Counted from the first letter of the stretch, positions 37,158-54,669 are shown. The stretch: DNA of 64,000 nt from an uncultured Alphaproteobacteria bacterium (GCA_902512325.1 CABXIT010000001.1:8207-72206), one strand, 5' to 3'. The notes: a model not told the origin generated them from the letters alone. Program-made: numbers and translations.

Positions 37158-37514
37158 TTAATATTCTTCTTCGCCATCTTCAGGCGTTTTTATGCCTGCA
37201 TCAGCAGCTGGATCTATTTCTGATTCATCTTCAATTAGTACTGTATCATCTTCAAGATTATCTTCATTATTATCTAAATCTAAATTTTCAATATCAAGAT
37301 CTTCATTTTTTTCTTTTGGTTTAGGTGGAACTGGATTTACTAAAGGTGCAGCGTTAGTACTGCCAGGTTTTCTTCCACGTCTAGGTCTAGACATTGTGGT
37401 AACCTCGATTTCTTTACCGCATTCAGGACATTCTAATTCAGATCTGCCAAGATCGTAGTATTGTTTACTACACATTGGACAAATTCTTTTTTCTCCCCAA
37501 GATTCTTTATACAT
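37158..37514 (-). CDS. TIGR02300-family zinc-ribbon protein with an acidic tail (FYDLN_acid)
   Basis: 118 aa. CPMC..YYDLGR..CPEC zinc ribbon followed by a Pro/Lys segment and a strongly acidic C-terminus. Confidence 0.75.
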   Translation of the reverse strand: MYKESWGEKRICPMCSKQYYDLGRSELECPECGKEIEVTTMSRPRRGRKPGSTNAAPLVNPVPPKPKEKNEDLDIENLDLDNNEDNLEDDTVLIEDESEIDPAADAGIKTPEDGEEEY

Positions 37515-37519
37515 ATTAG

Positions 37520-37681
37520 TTACTCTTTTTCTTTAATGTAAATTTTACCACAATAACCACAGACAACTTTATCTTGATTATCAAAACTATAATAAACTGC
37601 GGGGTGTCCTAAACCATCTTGACCACCATCGCAACATATAGTTTCTGTTTCCAATGATACTTTTTTTACATCTTGTTCCAC
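37520..37681 (-). CDS. Small zinc-finger protein (zf-CHCC / NDUFS6-like), absent from the supplied ORF track
   Basis: My own translation gives 53 aa from a GTG start: VEQDVKKVSLETETICCDGGQDGLGHPAVYYSFDNQDKVVCGYCGKIYIKEKE. The C..G..GHP.V...(n)..C.YCG pattern is typical of this alphaproteobacterial family. An in-frame stop lies 3 codons upstream of the GTG. Confidence 0.55.
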   Translation of the reverse strand: MEQDVKKVSLETETICCDGGQDGLGHPAVYYSFDNQDKVVCGYCGKIYIKEKE

Positions 37682-37752: not shown

Positions 37753-38595
37753 TTAATTAATCTGAAAATATACAAGAGTGACGCCAGTTACAATTAGTAT
37801 GGAGGGTATGATTCTTTTTGCGGCAGCCTTTTCTTTTAGCAAATATAAGCTAATTATTGTTGCTAAAACAATACTTACCTCACGAATACTTGAAACATAA
37901 GCTATTTCTATAAATTGCATTGACCACACAACAAGCCCATAACCAAGAATAGCAAGCACTCCTGCACTAGCTCCCTCTATAAGACTATAAGTATTTTTCT
38001 TCCGAAAGCCATTTTTAGATATAAGTGCATAAATCAACATTGGTATTCCGTTTAATAACAACATCCAAAATATATAAGTAAATTCATTTTCAGTACTTCT
38101 TACTCCGGTACCATCAATTATTGTATAAGTTGCAATCAGAACTGCTGTTAATATTGCAAGCAAAAATCCTTTTTGATTAAATTTTTTAGCCGACATAAAT
38201 GAAATCATAAATAAACCTAAGCAAGTAACTAAAATTCCAATGATCCCAAAAAAACTAATATTGTTTGAAAAAAAAAATAAACTAATTACTACAATAAAAA
38301 AACAAGACCCACCTCTTGCGATTGGATAAACAAAAGACAAATCAGCATAATTATAAGAAGCAATTACACTGTATCTATAAAAACCATGTAAAATAGTAGT
38401 GGCAATTAAAAAATACCATATGTCAACTGTAGGAAAGGGGACAAAAAAAATCAATGGAAGAAAAACTATTATTTCAATAATGGAAGTAAAAGCCATAATT
38501 GCAAGACTATTTCTACTTTTTTTAACTATTGCACTCCAACTTGCATGGCAAAGAGCTGCAAATAAAATAATAAAAAATACCAAGCTAATAGACAA
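37753..38595 (-). CDS. DMT-type membrane protein of the phosphonate-utilisation-associated phn_DUF6 kind (copy 1)
   Basis: 280 aa, 10 TM segments, LFAALCHASW N-terminus. It borders the phosphonate genes and is a paralogue of 47114..47956. Confidence 0.7.
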   Translation of the reverse strand: MSISLVFFIILFAALCHASWSAIVKKSRNSLAIMAFTSIIEIIVFLPLIFFVPFPTVDIWYFLIATTILHGFYRYSVIASYNYADLSFVYPIARGGSCFFIVVISLFFFSNNISFFGIIGILVTCLGLFMISFMSAKKFNQKGFLLAILTAVLIATYTIIDGTGVRSTENEFTYIFWMLLLNGIPMLIYALISKNGFRKKNTYSLIEGASAGVLAILGYGLVVWSMQFIEIAYVSSIREVSIVLATIISLYLLKEKAAAKRIIPSILIVTGVTLVYFQIN

Positions 38596-38652
38596 ATCTT
38601 ATTGGTTTTATATTTAATTCATTATAGATACCACTTTTAAAATCACAAAAAA

Positions 38653-39894
38653 ATGACACATTCGATTGAAGTAAATCAAAGAGTTTATCCGGGGATACCT
38701 TTAACAACTGCAATTGTTATTTGTTTAGATGGAAGTCAAAAAGAATATTTTGAGCAGGCATCAAAATCAAATTTAACACCCAATATTGATGCTTTAAAAA
38801 AAAATGGTGAAGACTTATTAGCAAACAGTGCAATTCCTAGTTTTACCAACCCTAATAATATTTCTATTGTAACAGGAAGACCCAGTTCTGTTCATGGTAT
38901 TTGTGGAAACTTTTTTTATACCCCTTCAACAGGCGAAGAAGTGATGATGAATGATCCTAAATTTTTAAGAGCCCCTACTATTTTTCAAAAATATTATGAG
39001 CAAGGTGCAAAAATTGCAATTGTAACAGCAAAAGATAAGCTTCGTAAGTTATTATCTCACGGTCTTAAATTTACTGACTCTCGTTCAATCTGTTTCTCTT
39101 CAGAAAAATCTGATCAAGCAACAAAAAATGAAAATGGAATAGATAATATAAATAATTGGCTTGGAATGACAGTTCCAGATGTTTATTCTCAAGATTTATC
39201 TGAGTTTGTTATGGCTGCAGGTGTCAAAATTCTTTCTGAGTTTAAACCTGATATTATGTATTTATCTACAACAGATTTTATTCAACATAAATATGCACCA
39301 GGAGATGATGAAGCAAATAGTTTTTATGCAATGTTTGATAAATATATTGGGCAATTAAATATAAATAATAACTCAATCATCATTACAGCTGATCATGGCA
39401 TGCAAGCAAAATCAAAATTCGATGGATCACCTAATGCAATTTTTCTTCAAGATATTCTTGATAAAAAATTTGGATCTCAAGTCGCAAAAGTAATCCTCCC
39501 TATTACTGATCCATATGTAGTTCACCATGGAGCTTTAGGTTCTTTTGCAACGGTTTATTTAGAAGATAAGTCAAAAATAGATGAAGTAATAAATCAAATT
39601 AAAATAATAAAAGATATTGAGGTTGTTGTGAGTAATGAAATGGGCTGCAAGGAATATGATTTACCAAAAGATAGAATGGGGGATATAATTTGTATGTCAT
39701 CCAAAAATATGACTATCGGTTCTGTTGAAAGTGCTCATGATCTTAGTAAATTGAAAGAACCTCTCCGATCTCATGGGGGCCTTCATGAAAGGGAAGTTCC
39801 ATTCATTTCTAATAAGAAAATCAATTCTATTGACACCAATATTAAACTAAATAATTATGATGCCTTTTATTACGCAATAGTAGGAGCAATGTGA
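38653..39894 (+). CDS. phnA: Phosphonoacetate hydrolase (alkaline-phosphatase superfamily)
   Basis: 413 aa. Long matches to my recollection of Pseudomonas PhnA: [64 protein letters not shown] and LRSHGG. Confidence 0.9.
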
Positions 39895-41333
39895 TGACAA
39901 ATGCAATTAAACACGAACCAATGCGTATTGCAGGTAAAAAAGTAGACGCAGAAAATAAAATCGATGTACTGTATCCTTACACAAATGAAATTATAGGTAC
40001 TGTTCCTGCCGGAACTGCTGAACATGCAAAACAAGCGCTTAACATAGCATCTAACTATCAATCAAAATTAACCAGATATGAGCGTCAGCAAATTTTACAA
40101 AAAACAGCAGAGGAACTTGTTAGAAGAAAAGACGAGATATCAGATGTTATTACATACGAATTAGGAATATCGAAGCAAGATTCACTTTATGAGGTAGGAA
40201 GAGCTTTTGATGTTTTTTCATTAACAGCCCAGCTATGTATTTTAGATGATGGTGAAATATTTTCATGTGATTTAACTCCGCACGGAAAGGCAAGAAAAAT
40301 ATTTACTATTAGAGAACCTCTCAGAGCAATATCTGCAATTACACCGTTTAATCATCCGCTCAATATGGTAGCTCATAAAATTGCTCCATCAATTGCAACT
40401 AATAATTGTACAGTTTGTAAACAAACAGAACTTACCCCTATGACAGCAATGCTTCTTGCAGATGTTTTATATGACTCAGGTTTGCCACCTGAAATGTTTT
40501 CTGTTGTTACAGGATGGCCACAAGATATTGGTTTAGAAATGATAAAAAATCCGAATATAGATTTAATTACATTTACGGGTAGTGTTGGTGTTGGAAAATA
40601 TATAGCGGAACAAGCTGGTTATAAAAGAACTGTATTGGAATTAGGCGGAAACGATCCACTTATAGTACTAAACGATTTAAGTGATGATGATTTAAAAAAA
40701 GCAGTTGAGTTAGCTGTTACTGGTGCTACAAAAAATTCGGGCCAACGATGTACTGCGGTGAAAAGAATTTTATGTCAAAATAAAATAGCTGATAAATTTG
40801 TTGCAATGGCTTTAGAGAGAGCAGAACAAATTACCTATGGTGACCCAATGGATCTCAAAATAGATCTTGGGACTGTAGTAAATAGTGAGGCAGCAGAGTT
40901 ATTTGATAAAAGAGTTTCAATGGCAGAGGAAGATGGTGCCAAAGTATTATATCATCCTGGAAGAAAAGGGGCATTACTTCCCCCTATTTTAGTAGATAAT
41001 GTAAATCCAAAGAGCGAATTAGTGCTTGAGGAAACTTTTGGTCCAGTGATACCTATTATAAGGGTACCTGATAATGATGACGAAGTTATTACTATATCAA
41101 ATTCAACAGCTTTTGGCTTATCTTCTGGAGTATGTACAAACAACTTTATTCGTGCAAAAAAATATATTCAAAACTTAAATGTAGGAACGGTAAATATATG
41201 GGAAGTCCCAGGTTACCGCATTGAAATGTCACCTTTTGGTGGAATTAAAGATTCTGGTTTAGGTTATAAAGAAGGTGTTATTGAAGCGATGAAAAGCTTT
41301 ACAAATGTAAAAACTTTTTCTTTACCTTGGTAA
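39891..41333 (+). CDS. phnY: Phosphonoacetaldehyde dehydrogenase (NAD-dependent aldehyde dehydrogenase family)
   Basis: 480 aa. ELGGNDP and catalytic Cys in [10 protein letters not shown] 4-nt overlap couples it to phnA. Confidence 0.8.
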
Positions 41334-41351
41334 TAAATTGAAAGAACTAAA

Positions 41352-42458
41352 ATGAAAAAAAATTTTAGATTTTATGATAATAGGCAAAAATACTTGTTAT
41401 TTGTTACAACAACTAATGAAAAAAATCAGATTGCTGATTTCATCCGTCCTTACGTAAATAAAATTAAACCGACAAAACCTGGTATTAAAATATTTGATGC
41501 AGGCATGGGTGACGGATCATTATTAATGAATGTAATGAGACAATGTCATGAAGCAAAACCAAATATACCTCTTCTAGTTTCTACAAAAGAAATAAGTATA
41601 GAAGATGTAAGATTTGGTTTAGAAAAATTACCAGACAGATTTGTTGAGCACAAAAATACTGTTTTTATTATATCAAACCTGCATTATGCTGAAGCAGCAA
41701 ATCTAAGATCTAATAATCATAGAAAACAGAAGAAGATTAATTGGAATATTGTTAAGCTTAAAGGAAATACCTCATTGGATTTTGCAGAACAATTAAGAAC
41801 TCAAAATTCTTTTTTAGAAAAAAAATGGAATATTGAGATTAATAAAAAAAATGGCAATCCAACTTATGAAGAACCATCTGTAATGATTATATACAGAGAA
41901 GATCAAGAGTTTAATGTGAATGAATTAATACCTACCAAAAATAATTCTACAAATAAATTTGATCTGATCATTGCCTCACAGCCTTATAGATCAAGAATTT
42001 CTGCAGAAAAAAAAGTAAAATATGTCATACACCCTATGATTGATGCCCTAAAAACTAAAGGCAAATTATTAACTATCCATGCGGCTGGGAAAGATCCAGC
42101 TAATCAAATTATAAAAAAAATCTGGCCAAAAGAAAACCCATTTCCTTCATTAAGTAATTCTATAATTCAATATTTGAAAAAAAATTTAGATAAAAATTTA
42201 TTAGCTAAAATAAATTTTAAAGATAAAGAAATTATTAAATGTAAACTTAGAGCACTACCAAATGAGCTCACTGGCAGTATCGCAACTTCTTTAATATTTT
42301 CTGCTTGGAATGCATCTATCTATGTTAATCAAATAGATGATGATAAAGTGATAAAAGTTGAAAAATCTAAAAATTATGAGAAAATTGTTAAGGAAATAAT
42401 TGCTAAAAATAAAGGTCTTTATTTTAATAATGAAATTTTCGTCATAGAAAAAAAATAA
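41352..42458 (+). CDS. Hypothetical protein, possibly a Rossmann/SAM-methyltransferase-like fold with a large insertion
   Basis: 368 aa. IKIFDAGMGDGSL resembles methyltransferase motif I, with FDLIIASQPY and GKLLTIH further on. It starts 18 nt after phnY on the same strand. The function is not recognised. Confidence 0.45.
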   Translation: MKKNFRFYDNRQKYLLFVTTTNEKNQIADFIRPYVNKIKPTKPGIKIFDAGMGDGSLLMNVMRQCHEAKPNIPLLVSTKEISIEDVRFGLEKLPDRFVEHKNTVFIISNLHYAEAANLRSNNHRKQKKINWNIVKLKGNTSLDFAEQLRTQNSFLEKKWNIEINKKNGNPTYEEPSVMIIYREDQEFNVNELIPTKNNSTNKFDLIIASQPYRSRISAEKKVKYVIHPMIDALKTKGKLLTIHAAGKDPANQIIKKIWPKENPFPSLSNSIIQYLKKNLDKNLLAKINFKDKEIIKCKLRALPNELTGSIATSLIFSAWNASIYVNQIDDDKVIKVEKSKNYEKIVKEIIAKNKGLYFNNEIFVIEKK

Positions 42459-42462
42459 ATAT

Positions 42463-43263
42463 TTATTCTTCAGTAAACCAATTAATATCAGTTTTTAAAA
42501 AATCTTCTGTGTGAATTATAAGGGATTCATCATTTATTATAGCAACATTATAATTAGGATCTGTATTTGCAGAGCCTTCACGATACTTATTAGAAAAATT
42601 TGGAATTAAGGTAGACCATGTACTTCTTGGTGAAGAAAAAGTTATGCCATCAAAAGAGCCTGAACTTGTAATATGTTGGTGACCGAAAAAAATATGTTTT
42701 ATATTTTTCTTAGAATCCAATAAAATATTTTTAAACTGATCTTTTTGTTGAAGGCCTATCCCATCACTGCTGTCTTTTACTAAAGCTATTGGGTTATGAT
42801 GCATAAAAATATAAATCTCATGACTATAAGATGTTTGACTTAAAATATTTTTAAGCCATCTTTGTCTATCTTCACAATAATGCCCTGCATGTGTATTGGC
42901 TAAATTCGTATCAATAAAAATAAAACGCTTATTTTTTAAATCTTTAAAATATTGTATAAATCCTTTTTCATCTAATTTGATTGAGGTAAAATTTTCTTTA
43001 AATATTTCACGATTATCATGATTGCCTATTATAATTTGTGGTTCTAAATTATTTGGTAAATTAAAATCATTAACAATGCTTAAAAATAATTGATACGATT
43101 CTTTATCTCCTAAGTCAGTAATATCTCCTGTAATAGTAAATAAATCTGCATCTTGGTGATGCTCTATAATATGTGCTAAAGCTTTCTTAAATCTATCTAC
43201 TGGATCAATTCCATTAATTTTGTCTGTGTAAATATGAGGGTCAGATAAATGAATTATTTTCAT
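42463..43263 (-). CDS. Calcineurin-like metallophosphoesterase (CpdA/GpdQ-type phosphodiesterase)
   Basis: 266 aa. Motifs HLSDPH, TGDITDLG, GNHDN, HHNP and GHQH. Confidence 0.85.
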   Translation of the reverse strand: MKIIHLSDPHIYTDKINGIDPVDRFKKALAHIIEHHQDADLFTITGDITDLGDKESYQLFLSIVNDFNLPNNLEPQIIIGNHDNREIFKENFTSIKLDEKGFIQYFKDLKNKRFIFIDTNLANTHAGHYCEDRQRWLKNILSQTSYSHEIYIFMHHNPIALVKDSSDGIGLQQKDQFKNILLDSKKNIKHIFFGHQHITSSGSFDGITFSSPRSTWSTLIPNFSNKYREGSANTDPNYNVAIINDESLIIHTEDFLKTDINWFTEE

Positions 43264-43290
43264 AAGTTAAAAATACAGAACTAAATTATA

Positions 43291-43926
43291 TTAAAAAGAA
43301 GTTTTAAAATAAATATATTTTTTAAATTCTTTTTGTAAATCAATACTCACTCTTGCATGCACCTTTCCCTGGCGACCATGAAAAGAACATTTTTCTTCAA
43401 TAGGGAAAACCCCTTCATGCCATATGTTGGGATGAATATATAATCCTTGCGAACCATCAAAATAAAAAGCTTTAAAATCACCAACTTGCACATCATCTCC
43501 TGGTAAGGCTAAAGGTGAAATAAATGGACTATTTGTTGATGGATAAAAAAGCTGTCCTCCATCAGGGTGATAATTAACATGCCAAATATAAATATTTTCT
43601 GGATGTTTATATTTTTTTATTACTTCACTATCAGGCGGTAAAGCATGACCAAGTATGTATTTTCCATCTACTTCATAGTCACTATTATGTTGAACAGCAT
43701 TATTTTGTCCGTAAAGTGTACTTCCTTCCCACCAAGCATCAAAGGATCCCTCTGTGCTCCCACCTTCATTTCCTGTTCCTTCATCAATTTCACGCCAACC
43801 TTGTTTGGGCCAAGTGACGATTTCAATATCACTATTTTCATATGAGTCGATTAAATACCCATATCCTTTAAGTGTTTCATTAGTTGCTTTAATTAAAGGA
43901 ATTTCAACCGCATCTGAACTACTCAT
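43291..43926 (-). CDS. Ureidoglycolate-lyase-fold (AllA-like) protein of unknown function
   Basis: 211 aa. TLKGYGYLID, YHPDGGQLFYP and GLYIHPNIWHEGVF parallel my recollection of the AllA motifs (F..YG.VI, HPLGTQAFIP, G.NYHRNVWHHPLF). An acidic/Trp-rich insertion of about 80 aa separates them. Its start overlaps the phnW stop (ATGA). Confidence 0.55.
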   Translation of the reverse strand: MSSSDAVEIPLIKATNETLKGYGYLIDSYENSDIEIVTWPKQGWREIDEGTGNEGGSTEGSFDAWWEGSTLYGQNNAVQHNSDYEVDGKYILGHALPPDSEVIKKYKHPENIYIWHVNYHPDGGQLFYPSTNSPFISPLALPGDDVQVGDFKAFYFDGSQGLYIHPNIWHEGVFPIEEKCSFHGRQGKVHARVSIDLQKEFKKYIYFKTSF

Positions 43927-45020
43927 AAACTTATCTTTAAATCGCTTATTACCTCTTTAATAGCTGTAAGCGTATCTTTCATATCTTTTTCATTTAAATT
44001 ACCAATACATCCAATGCGAAAAGTATCAGCAACAGTTAATTTGCCAGGATAAATTAGAAAATCTTTATCACTAAGAGCATTGTAAAATTTTTGAAAATTA
44101 AAGTTTAGGTCACTTGGTTGTTTAAAAGTTATTATGATTGGTGCTTGCAAATCATCAGGTAAGAGTTGTTCAAAGCCAATCTCTTTCATTCCATCACATA
44201 TTGTCTTACAATTATTTTTATATCTTTTGTGTCGTCCTTCAATTCCACCTTCTTTTTGATGTTCAGCAATTGCTTGATTGAATGCGGCTAAAACATGCGT
44301 GGGTGGTGTAAAGCGCCATTGTTTATTTTTTTCCATTGCGATCCATTGATCATACAAATCCAAACTTAAGGAATGACAATTCCCTTTTGCTTTTTCAATC
44401 ACATCACTTTTCATTAAAATAAATCCAACACCAGGAACTCCCTCTAAACATTTATTTGATGATGCTGCAACTGCATCAAAAGTAATGTCTTTACTACTAA
44501 GAGGAAGAGCGCCAAAAGCACTCATCGCATCTATAAATAAAGATAAGTTTTTTTTCTTAACTACATTAGCAATATCATTGATAGGATTTAGGATGCCTGA
44601 TGTAGTTTCACAATAAACTGCAAAGACGTGAGTAAGCTGCTTATTAGCATCAATAATCTCTTCTAATTTAGTCATATCGTGAGATTCATGTTCAGCTACT
44701 TCATATTCAATCATATTTCTATTTAAGTAAGTACACATTTTTTTCATTCGTTGACCATACGCACCATTAATTAAAATCAAAATGTTAGCATTTTTTGGTG
44801 TGAGTGAACTAATCATCGATTCAACGGCAAATGTCCCACTTCCTTGCATAGGTACACATTGATAATTACCCTCTCCATCAATTAATTTGATTAATGAGTC
44901 ACGAATAGATTGATTTAAATCTATGAATTTTTGATCACGCGATCCCCAATCATGAAGCATTGCCTCTTTTGTACTCATTGAGGTTGTTAAAGGACCAGGT
45001 GTTAATAATATTTTATCCAT
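43923..45020 (-). CDS. phnW: 2-aminoethylphosphonate:pyruvate aminotransferase
   Basis: 365 aa. Class V aminotransferase with LLTPGPLTTS at the N-terminus and the PLP lysine in SSNKCLEG. Confidence 0.9.
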   Translation of the reverse strand: MDKILLTPGPLTTSMSTKEAMLHDWGSRDQKFIDLNQSIRDSLIKLIDGEGNYQCVPMQGSGTFAVESMISSLTPKNANILILINGAYGQRMKKMCTYLNRNMIEYEVAEHESHDMTKLEEIIDANKQLTHVFAVYCETTSGILNPINDIANVVKKKNLSLFIDAMSAFGALPLSSKDITFDAVAASSNKCLEGVPGVGFILMKSDVIEKAKGNCHSLSLDLYDQWIAMEKNKQWRFTPPTHVLAAFNQAIAEHQKEGGIEGRHKRYKNNCKTICDGMKEIGFEQLLPDDLQAPIIITFKQPSDLNFNFQKFYNALSDKDFLIYPGKLTVADTFRIGCIGNLNEKDMKDTLTAIKEVISDLKISL

Positions 45021-45040
45021 AATATTATAAATCTATATAT

Positions 45041-46450
45041 TTATTTTTTTTCAAAATCTACCCTTCCAACTGATACAGCAATTTTGGCAAGTTGTTTATC
45101 AAACCATTTTGGATCTTTTCCCTCTTCTTGATCACTTTCTTTTCTTCTTATTGCATTTCTGATTATCATAGCGCCTAACCATCTAAATGGTTCAGGTGGA
45201 AACATTTTTAACGGCCCTTTACAAAAATTGCTTTTTGTCCATTCATTTTGTTCTTCGAGCGCCATACTACTTAATATTTCTCCACCAACGTGACACGTAA
45301 GAACGCCATTTCCTGAATAACCAAAAGCATATGAAATATTTTTATTTTTTGGATGATATCCAAAAAAAGGAAATCCAGTTTTTGTTCTCTCAGAAGGACC
45401 ATTCCAAGATGTAGTAATTTTTGCTTTTTTGAGTGAAGGATAGAAACTCACTAGTGATTTTTTTAAAAATTTTTCAATAGTACTTGGGCCATCAAATGAA
45501 TTAATAACTTTATTTCTAAAAGATAATGTATTTCCTCCTTTTCCTAAGATAATTTTTCCATCAGGAGTTGTTCTAGAATAATGAGTAAATAAATTGCAGT
45601 CTAGTATTACAAGTCCATTATTTAAACCGAGATTTTTTAATTCATTTTGCATAGGTTCTGTTATGATCATATCAGAAGAAACCAAAACTACGCTTCTTGA
45701 TAAAAAAGGTAAAAAATTTGGCGTCCATGCATTGATTGCCAACACTAATTTTTCACACGATACTGAGCCATTCTTAGTTTTTACATAAATTTCTTTTTTA
45801 TCATTATAAGAAATTACAGTACTTTTTTCAAAAATTTTGATACCATTATTTTCAGCTAATTTTTTAAGACCTCTTACAAGAACGGCTGGTTGCAAACTAC
45901 CTCCTGTTTGTGAAAAATAACCATCAATAAATTTTGAAGACTTAGTTAAATTTTGGACTTTTTCTTTTGATAATCTCTCCCAGCTATTTATGTTATGTTC
46001 ATTTAAATCACTTATAAGACTTTCAAAAGCTCCTTGATGAAATATATTTGTAGCACCGTATAAAACACCATCATCTCTTATTTCTGCATTAATCTTATTT
46101 TCAGAACAAAAATCTTTGATATGTTTCACGGCTGCTTCGGTTGACAGAACCATTTTCTTTGCATCTTCAATACCAACCACATCCCTGATTCCTTGAAATT
46201 TTGTAGACTGCGGTATCATGCAACCTCCGTTTCTTCCTGAAGCACCACTTCCACATAAATCTTTTTCAATTAAAATAATATTTAGCTGGGGCTTTTTTTC
46301 TTTAATTTTAATTGCAGTCCATAGACCTGTATACCCACCTCCAATAATACAAACGTCACAATTAAGATTTAAATTTAACTCATTAACTTTTAAATCTTTT
46401 TCTTTTTCTAAAGCCTCAATAAACCAAGGTGATTGATAGTGAAAATCCAT
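45041..46450 (-). CDS. FAD-dependent oxidoreductase (DAO/amine-oxidase type), first gene of the phnW operon
   Basis: 469 aa. N-terminal dinucleotide fold DVCIIGGGYTGLWTA. Confidence 0.85.
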   Translation of the reverse strand: MDFHYQSPWFIEALEKEKDLKVNELNLNLNCDVCIIGGGYTGLWTAIKIKEKKPQLNIILIEKDLCGSGASGRNGGCMIPQSTKFQGIRDVVGIEDAKKMVLSTEAAVKHIKDFCSENKINAEIRDDGVLYGATNIFHQGAFESLISDLNEHNINSWERLSKEKVQNLTKSSKFIDGYFSQTGGSLQPAVLVRGLKKLAENNGIKIFEKSTVISYNDKKEIYVKTKNGSVSCEKLVLAINAWTPNFLPFLSRSVVLVSSDMIITEPMQNELKNLGLNNGLVILDCNLFTHYSRTTPDGKIILGKGGNTLSFRNKVINSFDGPSTIEKFLKKSLVSFYPSLKKAKITTSWNGPSERTKTGFPFFGYHPKNKNISYAFGYSGNGVLTCHVGGEILSSMALEEQNEWTKSNFCKGPLKMFPPEPFRWLGAMIIRNAIRRKESDQEEGKDPKWFDKQLAKIAVSVGRVDFEKK

Positions 46451-46546
46451 TAAATTTTATAACATTCTCTTAGATCTTTATCGATATCTTATCAAATACT
46501 TTAACTTAGATTTGAAAAAAATATTTTTATAAGTTAAAATATATTT

Positions 46547-47104
46547 ATGCCAGATAACATCGTTGATTATTTACTTGAATTATTAGAAAAAAAAGGCTCT
46601 GATATTCAATACGGCAATGAAGATGTAACCCAATTAGAACACGCCCTTCAATGTGCGGAATTAGCAGAGCAACATAATAAATCAGATGCATTTATTGCCG
46701 CAGCTTTACTTCATGATATTGGACATCTTTTATATGAAGATAAAGACCCCATTCATCAAGGAAAAGATGGTGTTCATGAAGATTTAGGCGCTGATTATTT
46801 AACAAAATATTTTGGGGAAGAAGTAACACTTCCTATTAGAGCGCATGTTGCATCAAAGCGATATCTTGCAGCAGTTGAAGACGGATATTATGATGAATTA
46901 TCAGAAGCATCAAAAAAATCTTTAAAGGTTCAAGGTGGCATTTTTTCTAAAGAAGAAGCGGAAGAATTTATTAATAAACCGCAAATGAAAGAAGCTGTAG
47001 AGATGAGACGTTTTGATGATAAGGCAAAAATATTAAATAAAAAAACACCTTCAGTTGAACATTTTCGAAAGTATGTAGAAAATTCATTCCAAGCAACGTC
47101 TTAG
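46547..47104 (+). CDS. phnZ: HD-domain phosphonate oxygenase of the PhnZ type
   Basis: 185 aa. A PhnZ-like metal ligand series: H32 (LEHALQ), H56-D57 (LLHDIGH), H77 (VHEDLG), H100 (RAHVASKRY) and D157 (RRFDDKAK). The size and context fit the phosphonate HD family. Confidence 0.75.
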   Translation: MPDNIVDYLLELLEKKGSDIQYGNEDVTQLEHALQCAELAEQHNKSDAFIAAALLHDIGHLLYEDKDPIHQGKDGVHEDLGADYLTKYFGEEVTLPIRAHVASKRYLAAVEDGYYDELSEASKKSLKVQGGIFSKEEAEEFINKPQMKEAVEMRRFDDKAKILNKKTPSVEHFRKYVENSFQATS

Positions 47105-47113
47105 TAAAATAAT

Positions 47114-47956
47114 TTAAGAATTAAATATAAAATAAACACCAACAAAAAATATCACTGCTGAGATTATTCTAATTTTTTTTATTCTTTCACCTAGAAACAT
47201 AAAACTAATTAATGATGCCATAATTATACTAGACTCTCTAATAGAGGATACGTAGGCAATTGGTTGATGATTCATGCTCCATATAATTATACCATAAGCT
47301 GTAAACGACATAACAGAAGCAATTGTTATTAGCACAAATTGATTTAATTTTAATTTAAATAAACCACTTTTGTTTGTTAAATAAACATAACTAATAGTAA
47401 TCCACCCACCTAAAAAAAAATTCCAAACAATAAAACTAAATTCATTAACAGAACTTCTTACCCCTGCCCCATCTGAAAAAGTATAGAGAGCAATTATTAT
47501 GGAAACAAATAATGAAACAATCATTAGTTTGATATTTAATTTATTTTTATAATTTTCCTTTGTTAATAAAAGCAAACCAAAAACAACAATTCCTATTCCA
47601 ATGAAACCTTTTGTACTTATGTAATCTTGTAAAAAAATAACTGATAATAATGTAACAAAAACTGGAGCAAAACCTCTAAAGACAGGATAAATTATAGTTA
47701 TATCTCCTTTATTATACATACTTCCTAAAATTAAAAAATAAGCACTATGTAATAGAAGCGATAAAAATAAATAAAACCAAGTTATGCCTTCAGGAATAGG
47801 AACAAAAAATAAAATAGGAAAAAAGATTATGCTTTGTATTAGCATTTTCCAGGACATTGCAACTTGAGAATCCGTAATTGATTTAATTATAATATTCCAA
47901 CTTGCATGAAGTAATGCTGCAAATAGAATAAGTAAAAATATTGAAGTTTCGCTCAT
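47114..47956 (-). CDS. DMT-type membrane protein of the phn_DUF6 kind (copy 2)
   Basis: 280 aa, the same length and topology as 37753..38595. Shared blocks: LFAAL.HASW, YP..RG, DG.GVRS..EF, AYVSSIRE.S. Confidence 0.7.
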   Translation of the reverse strand: MSETSIFLLILFAALLHASWNIIIKSITDSQVAMSWKMLIQSIIFFPILFFVPIPEGITWFYLFLSLLLHSAYFLILGSMYNKGDITIIYPVFRGFAPVFVTLLSVIFLQDYISTKGFIGIGIVVFGLLLLTKENYKNKLNIKLMIVSLFVSIIIALYTFSDGAGVRSSVNEFSFIVWNFFLGGWITISYVYLTNKSGLFKLKLNQFVLITIASVMSFTAYGIIIWSMNHQPIAYVSSIRESSIIMASLISFMFLGERIKKIRIISAVIFFVGVYFIFNS

Positions 47957-47961
47957 TTTTT

Positions 47962-47992
47962 ATAAAAAAAATGGGGATGTAAACACCCCCAT
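47962..47992 (-). terminator. Rho-independent terminator after the phosphonate-binding-protein gene (minus strand)
   Basis: On the minus strand, an ATGGGG/CCCCAT stem with a 10-nt loop is followed by TTTTTTTTAT. Confidence 0.6.
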
Positions 47993-48015
47993 AATTATTT
48001 GTTTAAATTAAAGTT

Positions 48016-49059
48016 CTAACTTTTTGGCTCAGTTTTGCCATCGTATCTTTTCTTCCATTCAGCAACGATACGATCTTTATTCGCAGCAGCCCAAACAAAG
48101 TCATTATTAATTAACTTAGCCTGCACTTCATCATAAAAATCTGGAAGTTCAGGATCTTTGGTTACTTTTGATGAGTCAGCAATAATTGATTGTCTTTCGC
48201 CAAACAACTTCATCCCATCACCCAAAGTCCAATCCATTAATGTTTTAGCATCTTCAAGATTGTCTGTACCTTCCATTATAGCCACTACCTGCATTTCCCA
48301 ACCAATTCCTTCTTCAGGAATAATCATATCAATTGGTGCGCCAGCTTTGATAACTTTAATAGCTCTACCTGGCCAAGAAATACCAATCGCAAATTCACCT
48401 GAACCAGCTTGCTTACAAGGTTTTGAACCAGAGTGAGTATAAATACCAATATTTTCATGAAGGGCATCCATATATTCCCACGCTTTATCCTCACCCCATA
48501 TTTGCATCCAACTTGATGCATCTAAAAATCCTGTACCAGATGATGCGGGATTAGGCATAGAAATGTGACCTTTATAAATTGGATCGGTTAACTCTGCCCA
48601 AGTAGTAGGTTTGGGTAAACCATGTTTTTCTGCTTCAATTCTATTCCAACAAATACAACCTGCCCATCCATAGTTTCCTACCCAAGTAACTGGAGGTGTG
48701 GTATCGACATAACGTTGATCAATTGCATCCATTCCTTTTGGAGTATATTCAACAAACATACCTTCTGCTTCCATATTTAGCGCAACAGTTGCAGCCATTT
48801 CAAATAAGAAATCAGCTTGTGGATTATCTTTTTCAGCCATCATTTTAGCAGCCATTGTTCCTGTAGATTCACGAACTACATTAACTTTAATATCAGGATG
48901 TGCTTTTTGAAATTCATCCATATAATGTTTAAGATTATCTGCATCAGTACTTGAGTAAACTAAAAGTTCACCAGCATTAACTTGATGATTAAAAGCTAAT
49001 AATGATACAAATACTAAAACAGCACTTAATGATTTTATAGTTTTTTTTATTAAAAACAT
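48016..49059 (-). CDS. phnS: 2-aminoethylphosphonate-type ABC substrate-binding protein (PhnS-like, iron/polyamine SBP fold)
   Basis: 347 aa. Signal peptide and SBP_bac_1/6-like sequence. Divergent from the cognate ATPase and fused-permease genes inside the phosphonate island. Confidence 0.75.
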   Translation of the reverse strand: MFLIKKTIKSLSAVLVFVSLLAFNHQVNAGELLVYSSTDADNLKHYMDEFQKAHPDIKVNVVRESTGTMAAKMMAEKDNPQADFLFEMAATVALNMEAEGMFVEYTPKGMDAIDQRYVDTTPPVTWVGNYGWAGCICWNRIEAEKHGLPKPTTWAELTDPIYKGHISMPNPASSGTGFLDASSWMQIWGEDKAWEYMDALHENIGIYTHSGSKPCKQAGSGEFAIGISWPGRAIKVIKAGAPIDMIIPEEGIGWEMQVVAIMEGTDNLEDAKTLMDWTLGDGMKLFGERQSIIADSSKVTKDPELPDFYDEVQAKLINNDFVWAAANKDRIVAEWKKRYDGKTEPKS

Positions 49060-49224
49060 ATTAGTTCCTCCCTTAGTAATATTTTGAATATGTTAAACAA
49101 TTGTTTTAAATTGTTAACAGTTTTTAATAAATTATTATTTTAATATGAGTATAAGAAGATATAGTAATTTTAAAAATGGCTAAATACCGATATATTTTTA
49201 GTAATAAAAAAATGATAAAAATTA

Positions 49225-50286
49225 ATGGCATATCTTGAAGTAAAAGATTTATCTAAGTTCTTTGGTACTTTTCAAGCTATTAAAGATATTGAAATTGAAA
49301 TCAATGAAGGAGAGTTCGTTTGTTTTCTTGGACCTTCTGGATGCGGTAAGACAACTTTACTTCGTTGTATTGCAGGATTAGAAACTCAATCTTCAGGGTC
49401 TATAATTCAAAAAGAAAAAGATATTTCAATTGAGCCACCATCAAACAGAGATTTTGGAATAGTATTTCAAAGCTATGCACTTTTTCCTAACCTTTCAGTA
49501 TTTTCAAATATATCGTACGGTTTAATAAATAATAAATGGAAAAAAGAAGATATTAATAAAAGAGTAAATGAACTTCTTGAGTTAGTAAATTTACAAGAAC
49601 ATACATCTAAATACCCAAGTCAACTTTCAGGCGGAGAACAACAAAGAGTTGCACTAGCAAGAGCACTTGCTACTTCTCCAGGTTTGTTATTGTTAGATGA
49701 ACCTTTATCAGCATTGGATGCAAAGGTTAGGGTTTTTTTAAGAAAACAAATAAGAGATTTACAAAGAAAACTTGGTGTAACAACTATTATGGTTACGCAT
49801 GATCAAGAAGAGGCTCAAACAATGGCGGATAGGATTTTTGTAATGAAAGATGGAGAAATAATTCAATCTGGAACGCCAAAGGAAATTTATAATAAAGCTA
49901 ATTCCCCGTTTATTGCGTCTTTTATCGGAAGCATGAATTTTATTCCAGCATCAATTGATGCTTCTAAAAAAGTAAAATGTAATGATGTAGAGATTAACTG
50001 TGATATAGGAAGCTTTAGTGAAAATGATAACGTCCAATTAGCAATACGACCTGAAGAAATTCAGTTTCAACAAGAAAATCAAGATGATAATGTAGTGTCT
50101 GGCGTCATTAAAGAGATAGAATTTTTAGGTTCATTTCAAAGAGTATATTTTAAGACAAAAAACTTTTCTGATGAATTAATAATCGTTGACGTTCCAAGTT
50201 CTAATGCAAAGAAAATAAAAATGGATATTGATAATGAAATGAGTCTGTATTTTTCTAAAGAAGACGCTCGCATTTATTCTATCTGA
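49225..50286 (+). CDS. phnT: Phosphonate (AEP-type) ABC transporter ATP-binding protein
   Basis: 353 aa. Walker A GPSGCGKTT, signature LSGGEQQR, Walker B LLLDEP. Confidence 0.85.
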   Translation: MAYLEVKDLSKFFGTFQAIKDIEIEINEGEFVCFLGPSGCGKTTLLRCIAGLETQSSGSIIQKEKDISIEPPSNRDFGIVFQSYALFPNLSVFSNISYGLINNKWKKEDINKRVNELLELVNLQEHTSKYPSQLSGGEQQRVALARALATSPGLLLLDEPLSALDAKVRVFLRKQIRDLQRKLGVTTIMVTHDQEEAQTMADRIFVMKDGEIIQSGTPKEIYNKANSPFIASFIGSMNFIPASIDASKKVKCNDVEINCDIGSFSENDNVQLAIRPEEIQFQQENQDDNVVSGVIKEIEFLGSFQRVYFKTKNFSDELIIVDVPSSNAKKIKMDIDNEMSLYFSKEDARIYSI

Positions 50287-50294
50287 TTTAATTT

Positions 50295-51998
50295 ATGAAT
50301 TTATTTAAATTTGCTGATATTCGAAGAGGAAAAGACTCTAGTGATAGAGTGGGCCAATTTATGTTAGGTTCATATATTATTCTTTTTTTATTATTTTTAG
50401 TTTTACCTTTAGGGGCATTAATTTCTAAAAGTTTGGAAAATAAAGATGGGGAATTTATAGGTCTTGCAAATTACAGTTTATATCTTCAGGAACCTGCTTT
50501 ATTTCAATCTCTTTATAACAGTCTATTTGTTGCAATAATTTCTACTATTATAGTAGTCGTGTTAGCCTTTTTATTTGCTTACGCAATTACTAGAACTTGT
50601 ATGCCTTTTAAGGGTTTCTTTAAATTAGTAGCACTCATCCCTTTATTAAGCCCTTCAATTCTTGCAGCTATAGCCCTTGTCTATTGGTTTGGGAATCAAG
50701 GAGTTTTAAAAGAAATATTATTAGGAAAATCTATTTACGGGCCTATTGGTATTATTATGGCTTCTGTTTATTGGACCTTTCCACATGCACTGATTATTTT
50801 AACAACATCATTATCTTTATCAGACTCTCGCTTATATGAAGCGGCAGAAGTTTTAAAAACATCTAAACTCAGAGCATTTTTTACAATTACTATTCCAGGA
50901 GCAAGATACGGAATTATTAGTACCGCTTTTGTTATTTTTACACAAGTGTTTACCGATTTTGGTGTACCAAAAGTAATAGGTGGAAATTATAATGTATTAG
51001 CAACGGATATTTATAAAGAAGTAGTTGGCATGCAAAACTTTCAAATGGGAGCAGTCATATCTATGGTTTTATTAGTTCCTGCGATGATTGCCTTTTTTAT
51101 TGATCGATATTCGCGAAAAAAACAAATTTCTCTTCTCACATCAAGATCTGTTGTCTTTAAACCAAAGAAGCATTTTAAAGTAGATATGATAATGCTAGCC
51201 TTTTGTTCAGTATTAGCACTCATCATTATCTTGATGATAGGTATGGCGCAATACGGTGCAATCGTTAAGTTTTGGCCGTACAACTTAAACCTTACTCTAA
51301 AAAATTATAATTTTGAAGTAGCCGGACTAGGTTGGGATTCATTTTATAATTCGGTACGACTTGCTTTTTATGCAGCAATATTTGGTACCATTATTATATT
51401 TGTCGGGTCATACTTAATTGAAAAATTGCGCATAAATGAAGGCACAAGAAATGTTGTTCAATTTTTTGCTCTTATGCCAATGGCGGTGCCAGGACTTGTT
51501 TTAGGTTTAGCGTATATATTTTTCTTTAATGCAAAGGATAATCCTTTGAATTTTATATATGCAACTATGATTATTTTAGTCGTTAATACAATTGTGCACT
51601 TTTATACTGTGTCACATTTAACTGCTGTAACGGCCTTAAAGCAAATGGATAAGGAGTTTGAATCAGTTTCATTGTCCTTAAAAATTCCTATTTATAAAAT
51701 GTTTTGGCGTGTGACATTGCCTGTTTGTCTCCCGCCTATTTTTGATGTTTCTATTTATTTATTCGTAAATGCGATGACTACAGTGTCAGGAGTTATTTTT
51801 CTTTATTCTTATGATACTACTTTAGCGTCTGTATCCGCTATTCATCTTGATGAACAAGGAGAAGTTGCTAAAGCTGCTGCTATGGCTATGTTAATAGTTT
51901 ATGTTTCGGTTGCTGTTAGACTTACCCATACAATTATTACAAAAAAAGTATTGCGTAAAACTCAAGCGTGGCGATACAATATTCTTGATACTAAATAA
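50295..51998 (+). CDS. phnU: Phosphonate (AEP-type) ABC transporter permease, fused double permease
   Basis: 567 aa with two MetI-like halves, directly after the ATPase gene. Confidence 0.8.
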   Translation: MNLFKFADIRRGKDSSDRVGQFMLGSYIILFLLFLVLPLGALISKSLENKDGEFIGLANYSLYLQEPALFQSLYNSLFVAIISTIIVVVLAFLFAYAITRTCMPFKGFFKLVALIPLLSPSILAAIALVYWFGNQGVLKEILLGKSIYGPIGIIMASVYWTFPHALIILTTSLSLSDSRLYEAAEVLKTSKLRAFFTITIPGARYGIISTAFVIFTQVFTDFGVPKVIGGNYNVLATDIYKEVVGMQNFQMGAVISMVLLVPAMIAFFIDRYSRKKQISLLTSRSVVFKPKKHFKVDMIMLAFCSVLALIIILMIGMAQYGAIVKFWPYNLNLTLKNYNFEVAGLGWDSFYNSVRLAFYAAIFGTIIIFVGSYLIEKLRINEGTRNVVQFFALMPMAVPGLVLGLAYIFFFNAKDNPLNFIYATMIILVVNTIVHFYTVSHLTAVTALKQMDKEFESVSLSLKIPIYKMFWRVTLPVCLPPIFDVSIYLFVNAMTTVSGVIFLYSYDTTLASVSAIHLDEQGEVAKAAAMAMLIVYVSVAVRLTHTIITKKVLRKTQAWRYNILDTK

Positions 51999-52018
51999 TA
52001 TTAATACAAAATACTTTT

Positions 52019-52546
52019 ATGAATAAATTGGTATATGACTTTGTACAACCAAAAGATGTTAAGGGAAAAATTTTTCTTACGTGTTTTCCAGGAAGAAAAG
52101 GAACAGAAATTATTTTTAAGAAAAGTATGTTTTTAGAAGATTTAAATAACTTTAATAATCTAGGCTGTAATACTATTCTAAGCTTAATAGAAGATTCAGA
52201 GTTTGAAAAACTGTGTGATAAAAAAAACTTTGTTCGCTCCATATACACTAAAAATATAAAATGGATGCATATGCCTATTCAAGATTTAAAAGCACCTGAT
52301 CGTCAATTTAATGAAAAATGGGAAACAACAAAAGTTTTATTAAAAAATGATTTAATGGAAGAAAAAAATATTATTATTCATTGTATGGGGGGAAAGGGAC
52401 GTTCTGGAACTATCGCTGCGATTCTTTTGATTGAATTTGGTGAAGATAATAAAAAAGCAATAGAGATAGTTAGAGAAAAAAGAAAAGGTGCTATTGAAAC
52501 AGAGGAACAGGAAAAATTTATTTTAAATTATAATAGAATTAAATAA
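52019..52546 (+). CDS. Cysteine-dependent dual-specificity/CDKN3-like phosphatase
   Basis: 175 aa. The P-loop HCMGGKGRSGT (HCX5R[S/T]). It starts 20 nt after the permease gene on the same strand. Confidence 0.8.
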   Translation: MNKLVYDFVQPKDVKGKIFLTCFPGRKGTEIIFKKSMFLEDLNNFNNLGCNTILSLIEDSEFEKLCDKKNFVRSIYTKNIKWMHMPIQDLKAPDRQFNEKWETTKVLLKNDLMEEKNIIIHCMGGKGRSGTIAAILLIEFGEDNKKAIEIVREKRKGAIETEEQEKFILNYNRIK

Positions 52547-53591: not shown

Positions 53592-53597
53592 TAATTG

Positions 53598-54617: not shown

Positions 54618-54669
54618 TAGTTTTCTTATTAATACTTGTATTAACATTAAATCTATTTAAGAAATCTCT

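Follow-up and report, generated by a model that had tools for sequence, protein, structure and literature searches.

A probable aminophosphonate-catabolism locus of the phnWYA type, with exchangeable cassettes at a fixed site, in Pelagibacterales

Is a run of 14 phosphonate-related genes in an uncultured alphaproteobacterium an acquired island or a resident part of the chromosome, and which compounds could its products process? The genes in question occupy positions 37753-52546 of the 64,000-nucleotide stretch of DNA analyzed here (GCA_902512325.1, CABXIT010000001.1:8207-72206; this whole stretch is referred to below as the window). A sequence-only reading of the window had described them as a composite phosphonate-utilization island that combined, unusually, two or three alternative C-P cleavage or entry routes. 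Judging from the family assignments and the gene neighborhoods, they very probably constitute the locus for aminophosphonate catabolism on the chromosome of a Pelagibacterales (SAR11) bacterium and represent the known phnWYA type of 2-aminoethylphosphonate (AEP) degradation clusters. At this site, between the FYDLN/zf-CHCC genes and the PiT/PhoU_div genes, cassettes of transporter and "funnel-enzyme" genes are swapped in and out.

Gene content of the locus

Coordinates were taken from the table of open reading frames (ORFs) of the window, and approximately 60 ORFs across the window were scanned against Pfam and NCBIfam. The 14 consecutive genes are arranged in five transcription blocks: DMT1 on the minus strand; phnA-phnY-U368 on the plus strand; FAD-phnW-CUP-MPE on the minus strand; HD on the plus strand; and DMT2 with phnS2 on the minus strand, followed by phnT2-phnU2-PTP on the plus strand. 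The features of the locus and of its immediate boundaries are as follows.

37753-38595, minus: DMT1, 280-aa EamA/DMT membrane protein, phn_DUF6-like; conserved left-end gene
38596-38652, intergenic: 57-bp divergent region between DMT1 and phnA; conserved promoter-like block
38653-39894, plus: PhnA, phosphonoacetate hydrolase (TIGR02335); predicted C-P cleavage to acetate and phosphate
39891-41333, plus: PhnY, phosphonoacetaldehyde dehydrogenase (TIGR03250)
41352-42458, plus: U368, 368 aa, class-I methyltransferase-like motif; no Pfam family
42463-43263, minus: MPE, 266-aa calcineurin-like metallophosphoesterase of the class III phosphodiesterase type (SpdA/Rv0805/GpdQ-like; PF00149)
43291-43926, minus: CUP, 211 aa, ureidoglycolate-lyase (AllA) fold (PF04115 and predicted structure)
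43923-45020, minus: PhnW, AEP:pyruvate transaminase (NF010006, TIGR02326)
45041-46450, minus: FAD-dependent amine oxidoreductase of the TIGR03329 "putative aminophosphonate oxidoreductase" type (PF01266, DAO); variable cassette gene
46451-46546, intergenic: divergent promoter region of the FAD-phnW operon and the HD gene, from intergenic comparison with the related locus L011
46547-47104, plus: HD-domain mixed-valent diiron oxygenase of the PhnZ/TmpB family (TIGR03276); predicted oxidative C-P cleavage of 1-hydroxy-phosphonates
47114-47956, minus: DMT2, second phn_DUF6-like EamA protein, 280 aa (TIGR03340); in the inserted transporter cassette
47971-47992, minus: terminator-like hairpin and T-run in the phnS2/DMT2 gap; 9-pair stem with 5 GC pairs, then TTTTTTT
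48016-49059, minus: PhnS2, periplasmic substrate-binding protein of an AEP-type ABC importer (TIGR03261)
49225-50286, plus: PhnT2, ABC ATPase (TIGR03265)
50295-51998, plus: PhnU2, fused double permease (TIGR03262)
52019-52546, plus: PTP, 175-aa dual-specificity/PTP-type Cys-phosphatase (PF22784, PTP-SAK; PF00782, DSPc)
52539-54260, minus: PHO4 (PiT) phosphate transporter and PhoU_div (DUF47; PF01384, PF01865); right boundary, outside the phosphonate module
37520-37681, minus: zf-CHCC ORF, 53 aa, between FYDLN and DMT1

In the window, the end of phnA overlaps the start of phnY by 4 nt, the same overlap joins phnW to CUP, and U368 starts 18 bp past phnY. The ORF coordinates match exactly the 14-gene block of the sequence-only reading, including the three genes that it left without a role in phosphonate metabolism (41352-42458, 42463-43263, and 43291-43926) and the 3' Cys-phosphatase, all of which are real ORFs; the PiT/DUF47 transporter that it placed directly downstream is indeed recognized there by Pfam as PHO4 and PhoU_div. 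Its gene-by-gene functional calls were also correct, as judged from the NCBIfam and Pfam hidden Markov model searches. Six proteins (PhnA, PhnY, PhnW, PhnS2, PhnT2, and PhnU2) score above the curated NCBIfam cut-offs, whereas the FAD enzyme, the HD protein, and both DMT proteins have a phosphonate family as their best match, yet fall below its cut-off.

The hydrolytic core

PhnW, PhnY, and PhnA, the three enzymes of the route from AEP through phosphonoacetate to acetate and phosphate, are encoded within 6.4 kb. All three exceed the curated cut-offs, PhnA with 485 bits for TIGR02335 (cut-off, 408), PhnY with 774 bits for TIGR03250 (cut-off, 636), and PhnW with 521 bits for NF010006 (cut-off, 296) and 480 bits for TIGR02326 (cut-off, 401), so that the route can be regarded as complete, just as the sequence-only reading had stated. 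No C-P lyase and no PhnX, both of which it had reported as absent, were found among the ∼60 ORFs scanned, and the same Pfam and NCBIfam scans gave no family match to PepM (phosphoenolpyruvate mutase) or Ppd (AepY, phosphonopyruvate decarboxylase).

A conserved site with exchangeable cassettes

For comparison with relatives, one genome per species was scanned for the FYDLN_acid gene of the left flank (37158-37514), 10 kb was taken on either side, and the gene content of the resulting 80 loci (designated by numbers such as L004) was mapped by tblastn with the window proteins. All 80 loci are of the Pelagibacterales type, the homologues and syntenic contigs coming from Pelagibacterales single-cell and metagenome-assembled genomes. 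The zf-CHCC gene followed by DMT1 is present in every one of them. PhnA and PhnY are encoded in all loci whose contigs reach that far (75 and 70 loci, respectively), with PhnA-PhnY adjacency in 75 of 75. On the right, the relatives share the genes for PTP, PiT, PhoU_div, DUF6552, SET, a 319-aa protein, and MurJ, and the PHO4/PhoU_div boundary is 85-98% identical in related loci. The relatives therefore have the same flanks and the same core, which makes the locus a case of conserved synteny at a fixed site in this sub-clade rather than a unit that comes and goes.

The core consists of nine genes, those for DMT1, PhnA, PhnY, U368, MPE, CUP, PhnW, HD, and PTP, and is found bare in L004, L028, L044, and L071. 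Over this core, the window has two additions, the FAD gene and the cassette of DMT2 and PhnS2T2U2. Other relatives have other genes: an Ugp-like ABC system lies between DMT1 and phnA in 55 of the 80 genomes, and about 50 of the 80 have the binding protein of this system, a MetE-like gene, and an iron-type alcohol dehydrogenase (Fe-ADH, seen in 54 of 80) after phnY. Further cassettes carry a homocysteine-methyltransferase-like gene, a second Ugp-like system, or a GDPD diesterase. The best match of the relatives' Fe-ADH is TIGR03405 (Phn_Fe-ADH), with 360 bits against a cut-off of 424. The degradative Fe-ADH PhpC oxidizes 2-hydroxyethylphosphonate to phosphonoacetaldehyde (PMC13576164); by analogy, the PhpC-type enzymes of these relatives would feed 2-hydroxyethylphosphonate into the same aldehyde. 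The FAD gene is found in just 2 of the 80 genome loci, of which only ∼15 extend as far as PhnW, and DMT2 is likewise found in 2 (L007 and L011 only). L007, the closest genome, with proteins 84-97% identical to those of the window, has DMT2-PhnS2 and lacks the FAD gene. Among metagenome contigs, which were retrieved by a scan with DMT2, L090 reproduces the gene order of the window and shows 99-100% protein identity across DMT2 and PhnS2/T2/U2. The FAD gene is polymorphic among the closest metagenome relatives, being present in L093 and L094, in the exact gene order of the window and beside HD, and absent from L092, L101, and L148. With cassettes varying inside a conserved locus, the block is composite by virtue of cassette exchange within a resident locus.

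Nothing in the composition of the block sets it apart from its surroundings. The G+C content is 0.28-0.33 both inside and outside it (∼0.31 overall), the G+C content of every gene, overall and at third codon positions, matches that of the flanks, and the tetranucleotide distance, computed in sliding windows over 33-57 kb, has z values of -1.0 to +0.8, whereas other parts of the window reach a z value of 3. Hallmarks of integration were not found either: there is no tRNA, no integrase or transposase domain, and no flanking direct repeat, and around the cassettes only short repeats of chance level were seen, the longest "repeat" being the DMT1/DMT2 paralogy. The description of the block as an island that forms a unit therefore does not hold, and of the word "composite" in that description only one meaning survives, a nine-gene core plus two inserted cassettes (FAD and DMT2-PhnS2T2U2), not a composite mobile element. 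The sequence-only reading had itself considered that the block might turn out to be universally conserved core synteny with no link to a phosphorus-source phenotype; the core is indeed conserved synteny in this sub-clade, and the gene content is still plainly related to phosphorus.

A richer layout is common among related metagenome loci. In L113, L125, L132, L136, and L138, two paralogous PhnS2T2U2 sets (48-58% identical) stand on either side of HD; in these loci, the FAD gene follows the second PhnS2T2U2 set, beside a third DMT lineage. Such two-importer arrangements suggest paired transporter-enzyme modules for different aminophosphonates.

Transporters

All three components of the PhnS2T2U2 importer are encoded together and exceed the respective cut-offs (PhnS2, TIGR03261, 403 bits versus 393; PhnT2, TIGR03265, 494 versus 458; PhnU2, TIGR03262, 769 versus 593), which bears out the earlier assignment of a PhnS/T/U-type ABC importer.

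Both DMT proteins contain two copies of the EamA domain (PF00892) and are encoded inside the phosphonate cluster, DMT1 beside phnA in 80 of 80 loci, either directly or across the Ugp-like ABC cassette, and DMT2 beside phnS2. In NCBIfam, their best match is TIGR03340 (phn_DUF6), with 144 and 151 bits, respectively, against a cut-off of 288. The two are 37% identical (E value of 3e-54) and are each ∼58-59% identical to their own orthologue lineages in the relatives, and DMT2 is 58% identical to the further DMT lineage of L125-type loci. The third EamA protein of the window is far more distant (27% identity over 75 aa). Given this degree of identity, the separate orthologue lineages, and essentially no relationship to the third protein, DMT1 and DMT2 are true paralogues within a subfamily, as had been proposed for these two 280-aa proteins of the phn_DUF6 type encoded in the same (minus) orientation.

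The window encodes yet another ABC system at 25141-28827. Its binding protein (25141-26163) is of the SBP_bac_6 type and its permease (26157-27785) is a fused one of 542 aa, both being encoded on the plus strand; the gene for its ATPase (27778-28827) is on the minus strand. The system has weak best matches in NCBIfam to AEP-transporter families (63 bits versus a cut-off of 310 for PhnS; 297 versus 458 for PhnT2), and it may serve the import of aminophosphonates, as AepXVW does, or else that of iron or thiamine.

The FAD oxidoreductase and the HD oxygenase

The sequence-only reading had recognized an FAD amine-oxidase-like enzyme and a PhnZ-type HD oxygenase in the block; both are present, with phosphonate families as their best matches. 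The FAD enzyme scores 572 bits with TIGR03329 (cut-off, 633) and 184 bits with PF01266, and its gene, which immediately precedes phnW, belongs to the same operon inside the AEP degradation cluster. As its score with TIGR03364, the family that carries the PbfD annotation, is only 26 bits, it does not belong to the PbfD type. Characterized FAD enzymes of AEP clusters (PbfB, PbfC, and PbfD) oxidize N-methyl-AEP, and some of them AEP, to phosphonoacetaldehyde (PMC10590968). By analogy with these enzymes, the one encoded here can be expected to widen the entry into the PhnY-PhnA trunk, with N-methyl-AEP as its most likely substrate. The intergenic region between FAD and HD in the window is nearly identical in sequence to the phnW-HD intergenic region of L011, which is without the FAD gene; hence the FAD gene has phnW on one side and an unchanged promoter region on the other.

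The HD protein scores 206.9 bits with TIGR03276 (Phn-HD), narrowly under the cut-off of 214.6, and 165 bits with the PhnZ1 and TmpB equivalogs, whose cut-off is 300. Its sequence matches in the PDB, TmpB (6npa, 121 bits) and PhnZ (4mlm, 117 bits), are about equally similar to it. Residues H32, H56, D57, H77, H100, D157, Y22, and E25 align with PhnZ residues H34, H58, D59, H80, H104, D161, Y24, and E27, respectively, and H60 is likewise aligned with a PhnZ residue in the 4mlm alignment; we take the aligned PhnZ residues to be the six iron ligands, the Tyr/Glu pair, and further substrate contacts. Because these ligands and contacts align and the similarity to PhnZ and TmpB is equal, the protein appears to be a competent oxygenase of the PhnZ/TmpB family, the exact substrate of which cannot be read from its sequence.

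No hydroxylase of the PhnY*/TmpA type (PhyH or TauD family) was found in the cluster, among the ∼60 window ORFs scanned, or in the annotated relatives L001-L004, which means that the HD oxygenase has to use prehydroxylated substrates or a partner encoded elsewhere. Accordingly, its listing by the sequence-only reading as a separate C-P cleavage route needs to be amended, as it is not self-sufficient. Most likely, it acts on imported 1-hydroxy-aminophosphonates; where phnZ occurs in phnWX or phnWYA clusters, the same has been suggested for its product (legend to Table S1 in PMC10590968). The idea that the substrate range is wider than AEP is a reasonable one, with FAD enzymes of AEP clusters oxidizing N-methyl-AEP and PhnZ acting on (R)-1-hydroxy-AEP (PMC10590968).

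Four additional conserved genes

CUP, MPE, U368, and PTP are specific to the SAR11 version of the phnWYA-type cluster. In CUP, PF04115 covers the C-terminal 68 aa. The AlphaFold2 model of this protein has a predicted local distance difference test (pLDDT) score of 79.6 and a predicted template modeling (TM) score of 0.81, and its top Foldseek matches are the AllA structures 2bdr and 1xsq (E values of 1.5e-8 to 3e-7; TM score of ∼0.65, normalized to the target length). According to this model, CUP has the AllA (ureidoglycolate-lyase) fold along its whole length, and the alignment shows that it retains the HP..GxQ and WH motifs of the AllA family. Its best NCBIfam score with the AllA equivalogs is 34 bits (cut-off, 230), its neighbors are phnW and a phosphoesterase gene, not genes of allantoin or purine degradation, and a look-up of its exact sequence returned no record. 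CUP lies directly downstream of phnW in 27 of 27 loci. No other guilt-by-association signal in the locus is as strong as this coupling, although no reaction can be named from it. Operonic linkage as tight as this, maintained over 50-95% sequence divergence, speaks for a common function, at least in the case of CUP.

MPE has SpdA as its best NCBIfam match (179 bits; cut-off, 400); its score with CpdA is 62 bits (cut-off, 225). Its sequence matches in the PDB are the Rv0805 and GpdQ entries 2zo9, 2dxl, and 3d03 (E values of ∼1e-13), its metal-ligand motifs (DPH, GD, GNHD, HH, and GHQH) are readable, and there is no evident signal peptide. The MPE gene follows CUP in 20 of 26 loci. Its product shares only 64% identity with its counterpart in the closest genome, L007 (locus position 4248), whereas the neighboring proteins are 86-97% identical, and no locus has an MPE of more than 75% identity. 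Similar allele jumps were seen for PTP (53-57% identity in most loci) and DMT1 (49-96%), and these patterns suggest allelic replacement or fast evolution. A paralogous relationship between MPE and the plcP-like metallophosphoesterase of the relatives was considered and ruled out, the two having no similarity. PTP has an intact HCX5R motif (HCMGGKGRS); its gene directly follows HD in 18 loci, and in the other loci a transporter cassette lies between HD and PTP. MPE and PTP could plausibly free phosphonate or phosphate from ester-linked forms.

U368 has no match in Pfam, NCBIfam, or the PDB. A profile of its diverse homologues likewise found nothing in the PDB and gave only sub-threshold methyltransferase hints in Pfam, and an AlphaFold model with a pLDDT score of 50.8 was too poor and was not used. 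The motifs FDAGxGDG (here, FDAGMGDGS), GKEIS, and YDLIIASQPYR are conserved in the U368 family, a large uncharacterized family in its own right, comprising 948 clusters at 50% identity. It is widespread in Alphaproteobacteria, with >8000 proteins matched, many of which have an extra N-terminal domain of ∼100 aa. In Polymorphum gilvum, the homologous gene adjoins that for MTHFR, and in a Rhodospirillales metagenome-assembled genome it lies a few kilobases from betaine/dimethylglycine-type genes. In the three neighborhoods taken from Polymorphum, Breoghania, and the Rhodospirillales genome (L087, positions 8001-10371; L088; and L089), the neighbors of the U368 homologues are MTHFR, betaine/one-carbon, or unrelated genes, with no phosphonate genes nearby. 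U368 is also missing from two otherwise complete SAR11 loci, L024 and L031.

That the SAR11-specific CUP, MPE, and PTP, the genes of which are apparently cotranscribed with those of the known enzymes, catalyze undescribed steps of marine phosphonate catabolism is a tentative idea of rather low probability. One possibility is that they release AEP or hydroxy-AEP (HAEP)-type head groups from ester-linked or N-substituted natural forms. If true, this would also explain an "orphan" PhnZ-type oxygenase that works without a hydroxylase.

Regulation

The sequence-only reading noted the lack of a LysR- or GntR-type regulator, and indeed there is none in the block: Pfam and NCBIfam detect no DNA-binding domain in any of the 14 products. 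The only regulator-like genes within 10 kb are those for PhoU_div and a Zur-like Fur protein (56206-56610) beside znuABC. In the alignment of ∼27 loci, the 57-bp spacer between DMT1 and phnA contains a block, AATCTTATTGGTTTTATA..TAAATCA.TATAGATACCA, that is conserved among the window-type loci. The majority-type relatives (L020-L086) have a different spacer upstream of phnA (approximately at locus positions 4400-4540), with a strongly conserved region of ∼110 bp in which three TTTTATTTCA-like direct repeats with 11-bp spacing precede a TTGAGT...TATAAA promoter-like pair. These repeats, which are absent from the window, could be an operator for a trans-acting regulator.

A search for E. coli-type Pho boxes gave 9 matches versus the 4.7 ± 2.4 expected, a number reached in 5 of 100 shuffles and thus at chance level; the match near phnA overlaps the start codon and was judged to be due to chance. 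A promoter scan found fewer sites than in shuffled sequences and was uninformative, the hairpin after phnS2 being the only element that stands out.

Proposed pathway

The family assignments outlined above are consistent with the following scheme. PhnS2T2U2 would import AEP or its close analogues, and the two phn_DUF6-like DMT carriers would probably move related small molecules. PhnW would transaminate AEP to phosphonoacetaldehyde, and the FAD oxidoreductase would produce the same aldehyde from amines that PhnW cannot use, most likely N-methyl-AEP. Hydrolytic cleavage would then proceed through the conversion of the aldehyde to phosphonoacetate by PhnY and of the latter to acetate and phosphate by PhnA. 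In the oxidative branch, the HD oxygenase would turn imported 1-hydroxy-2-amino(alkyl)ethylphosphonates into glycine (or N-methylated glycine) and phosphate. As accessory enzymes, MPE and PTP could plausibly release phosphonate or phosphate from ester-linked forms. Expression presumably starts in the three short divergent promoter regions and would be constitutive or controlled by a regulator encoded elsewhere. In evolutionary terms, the nine-gene core would have stayed at its fixed site while transporter and funnel-enzyme cassettes were exchanged.

Alternative explanations

Horizontal acquisition of the block as a flexible genomic island, gained and lost as a 15-kb unit, is improbable and, for this sub-clade, already largely refuted: the strong differences among relatives in the gene content between the conserved flanks and the fact that SAR11 has, at another place in its genome, a flexible island bearing phosphonate genes of the C-P lyase kind (PMC7318151) would fit it, as would MPE, PTP, and DMT1 alleles that are far more divergent than their neighbors, but neither the composition nor a search for tRNA, integrase, and flanking repeats betrays an insertion, and with DMT1 in 80 of 80 loci and PhnA-PhnY in 75 of 75 at the same site, only individual cassettes vary. 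Far less probable still is a biosynthetic cluster, whose product might be, for example, AEP destined for phosphonolipids or glycans. PhnW is reversible and serves AEP biosynthesis as well, and the capacity to make phosphonates has been reported for some SAR11 lineages (bioRxiv 10.1101/2020.11.04.368217). However, biosynthesis and catabolism were reported to be mutually exclusive in those lineages (same source), PhnA, PhnY, the importer, and the HD C-P oxygenase are all catabolic, and this reading is rejected because the window scans revealed neither pepM nor ppd.

A rather doubtful but more substantial alternative is that of a general neighborhood for scavenging dissolved organic phosphorus, in which MPE, PTP, CUP, and U368 would be unrelated to C-P compounds and merely packed nearby in a streamlined genome, MPE and PTP hydrolyzing imported phosphodiesters or monoesters and U368 taking part in one-carbon or methionine metabolism. 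Several observations point this way: in relatives, the locus itself contains genes for Ugp-like ABC importers and for a GDPD glycerophosphodiesterase; PiT/PhoU_div adjoins it, and relatives also have a plcP/agt-like lipid-remodeling pair there; the nearest solved relatives of MPE are phosphodiesterases; in other Alphaproteobacteria, the genes next to U368 homologues are those for MTHFR or betaine demethylation; and the SAR11 locus variants include MetE-like and homocysteine-methyltransferase genes. It is harder to reconcile with the invariable position of CUP directly after phnW (27 of 27 loci), with a 4-nt overlap of the frames in the window, and with the position of PTP directly after the HD oxygenase wherever no cassette intervenes. 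The assignment of the locus to aminophosphonate catabolism, which we prefer, has to be weighed against points of its own. The 80 genomes were chosen by closeness to a single flank gene (74-93% identity) and do not sample Pelagibacterales without bias, so that "conserved" applies to this sub-clade only, and most contigs stop short of the right half of the locus, with ∼15 of the 80 genome contigs reaching PhnW. Substrates and activities are inferred from family assignments; since the FAD, HD, and DMT proteins fall under the equivalog cut-offs, the family names may not describe the substrates of these proteins. A hydroxylase partner for the HD oxygenase is missing from the cluster, and U368 may be an unrelated neighbor, because its homologues in other Alphaproteobacteria are not found near phosphonate genes.

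Relationship to known phosphonate systems

The TIGRFAM families matched here were, we assume, defined from phnWYA-type clusters with an FAD oxidoreductase and phnZ, and their descriptions presumably also associate such clusters with PhnS2T2U2 and phn_DUF6.

Table S1 of Zangelmi et al. 2023 (PMC10590968) contains clusters of Variovorax, Collimonas, and Rhodoferax that combine phnWYA with PbfB and phnZ, and the combination of routes in the window, an FAD oxidoreductase and phnZ added to phnWYA, is thus less unusual than the sequence-only reading had it. Like the clusters of Variovorax paradoxus, Collimonas pratensis, and Rhodoferax sediminis, the one in the window encodes PhnW, PhnY, PhnA, a PF01266 FAD oxidoreductase, and a PhnZ-type HD protein without PhnY*, and it follows the same logic of funneling into phosphonoacetaldehyde. 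Unlike these betaproteobacterial clusters, it has no LysR-type regulator, has two DMT paralogues and four extra conserved genes (coding for the AllA-fold, metallophosphoesterase, methyltransferase-like, and Cys-phosphatase proteins), and resides in a streamlined SAR11 host; its FAD enzyme also differs from PbfD in not being of the TIGR03364 type. The HD protein is about equally similar to those of the PhnY*/PhnZ and TmpA/TmpB pathways, and all metal-ligand and substrate-contact residues align; the Fe/2-oxoglutarate hydroxylase that is its partner in these pathways is absent from the cluster and the window ORFs scanned. PbfF, the HAEP racemase, was considered for an SDR/epimerase encoded in L002 and was ruled out, as PbfF belongs to a different fold family (PF02826).

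With the SAR11 C-P lyase/phnCDE cluster (HTCC7211, genomospecies Ia.3/VII; PMC7318151), the locus shares the organism group, a role in phosphorus scavenging, and variable content between conserved flanks. That cluster, found in the pstSCAB-phoU flexible island, differs in relying on a radical C-P lyase rather than on hydrolytic and oxidative enzymes, in its transporters, and in its genome site; it is also restricted to low-phosphorus populations (PMC7318151), whereas the window-type core is present in all 80 relatives examined. Similarly to the AEP transporters AepXVW, AepP, and AepSTU (Murphy et al. 2021, PMC8316502), a periplasmic-binding-protein ABC importer, here one putatively dedicated to AEP, is encoded beside catabolic genes; those transporters are under LysR-type regulators, and the cluster in the window has no such regulator.

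The presence of phnA, phnW, phnY, and phnZ in Pelagibacterales is known from surveys (PMC9381506; bioRxiv 10.1101/2020.11.04.368217), and ocean reads of these four genes map largely to this order (PMC9381506). According to published surveys, phnZ is the most abundant phosphonate-catabolic gene in the sea, with ∼45% of it coming from Pelagibacterales. In the literature searched, no description was found of the architecture of the SAR11 locus (the fixed site, the nine-gene core, and cassette exchange, including the duplicated PhnS2T2U2), of the missing regulator and hydroxylase, or of the phnW-coupled AllA-fold gene in SAR11, and the paper on HIMB59 "phosphate islands" does not mention these genes.

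Other features of the window

A second small variable spot is found beside the phosphonate locus, at 56206-59266, where a Zur-like Fur gene and znuCBA lie between the gene for the 319-aa protein and murJ; at this place L006 has nothing, and L004 has a Fur-like gene and a 128-aa ORF. In L001 (16699-19358) and L002 (17672-20327), a GT4 glycosyltransferase and a 270-aa metallophosphoesterase are encoded between DUF6552 and SET, a pair that resembles the agt/plcP lipid-remodeling pair used under phosphorus stress. This pair is absent from the window, in which DUF6552 (54387-54617) is followed directly by SET (54387-55155 for the two).

The only part of the window with a raised G+C content (0.37-0.39; tetranucleotide z value of ∼3) contains the gene for the KatG catalase-peroxidase (6523-8655, minus strand; 1174 bits), and this region may have been acquired horizontally. 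The lowest G+C content of the window (0.27; tetranucleotide z value of ∼2) is that of the folate-branch operon pabB-pabA-pabC-folP-folB-folK (15039-19156).

Significance

SAR11 bacteria are the most abundant heterotrophs of the surface ocean, and surveys that count single genes credit them with much of the marine phnA, phnW, phnY, and phnZ. The current analysis shows how these genes are organized in SAR11: a core at a fixed site and interchangeable cassettes, with neither a regulator in the block nor, in the cluster and the ORFs scanned, a hydroxylase that would serve the PhnZ-type oxygenase. Where gene counts are used to estimate oceanic "AEP oxidation via PhnZ," the wrong substrate may therefore be assigned, and strain-level differences in usable phosphonates are likely to be encoded by the cassette content. 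What makes the locus worth attention is mainly its conserved uncharacterized genes and its orphan PhnZ-type oxygenase in a globally dominant organism. The four conserved genes, above all the one for the AllA-fold protein that is coupled to phnW, are candidates for new phosphonate-processing enzymes, well suited to the progression from genomic context to enzymology that yielded PbfA to PbfG.

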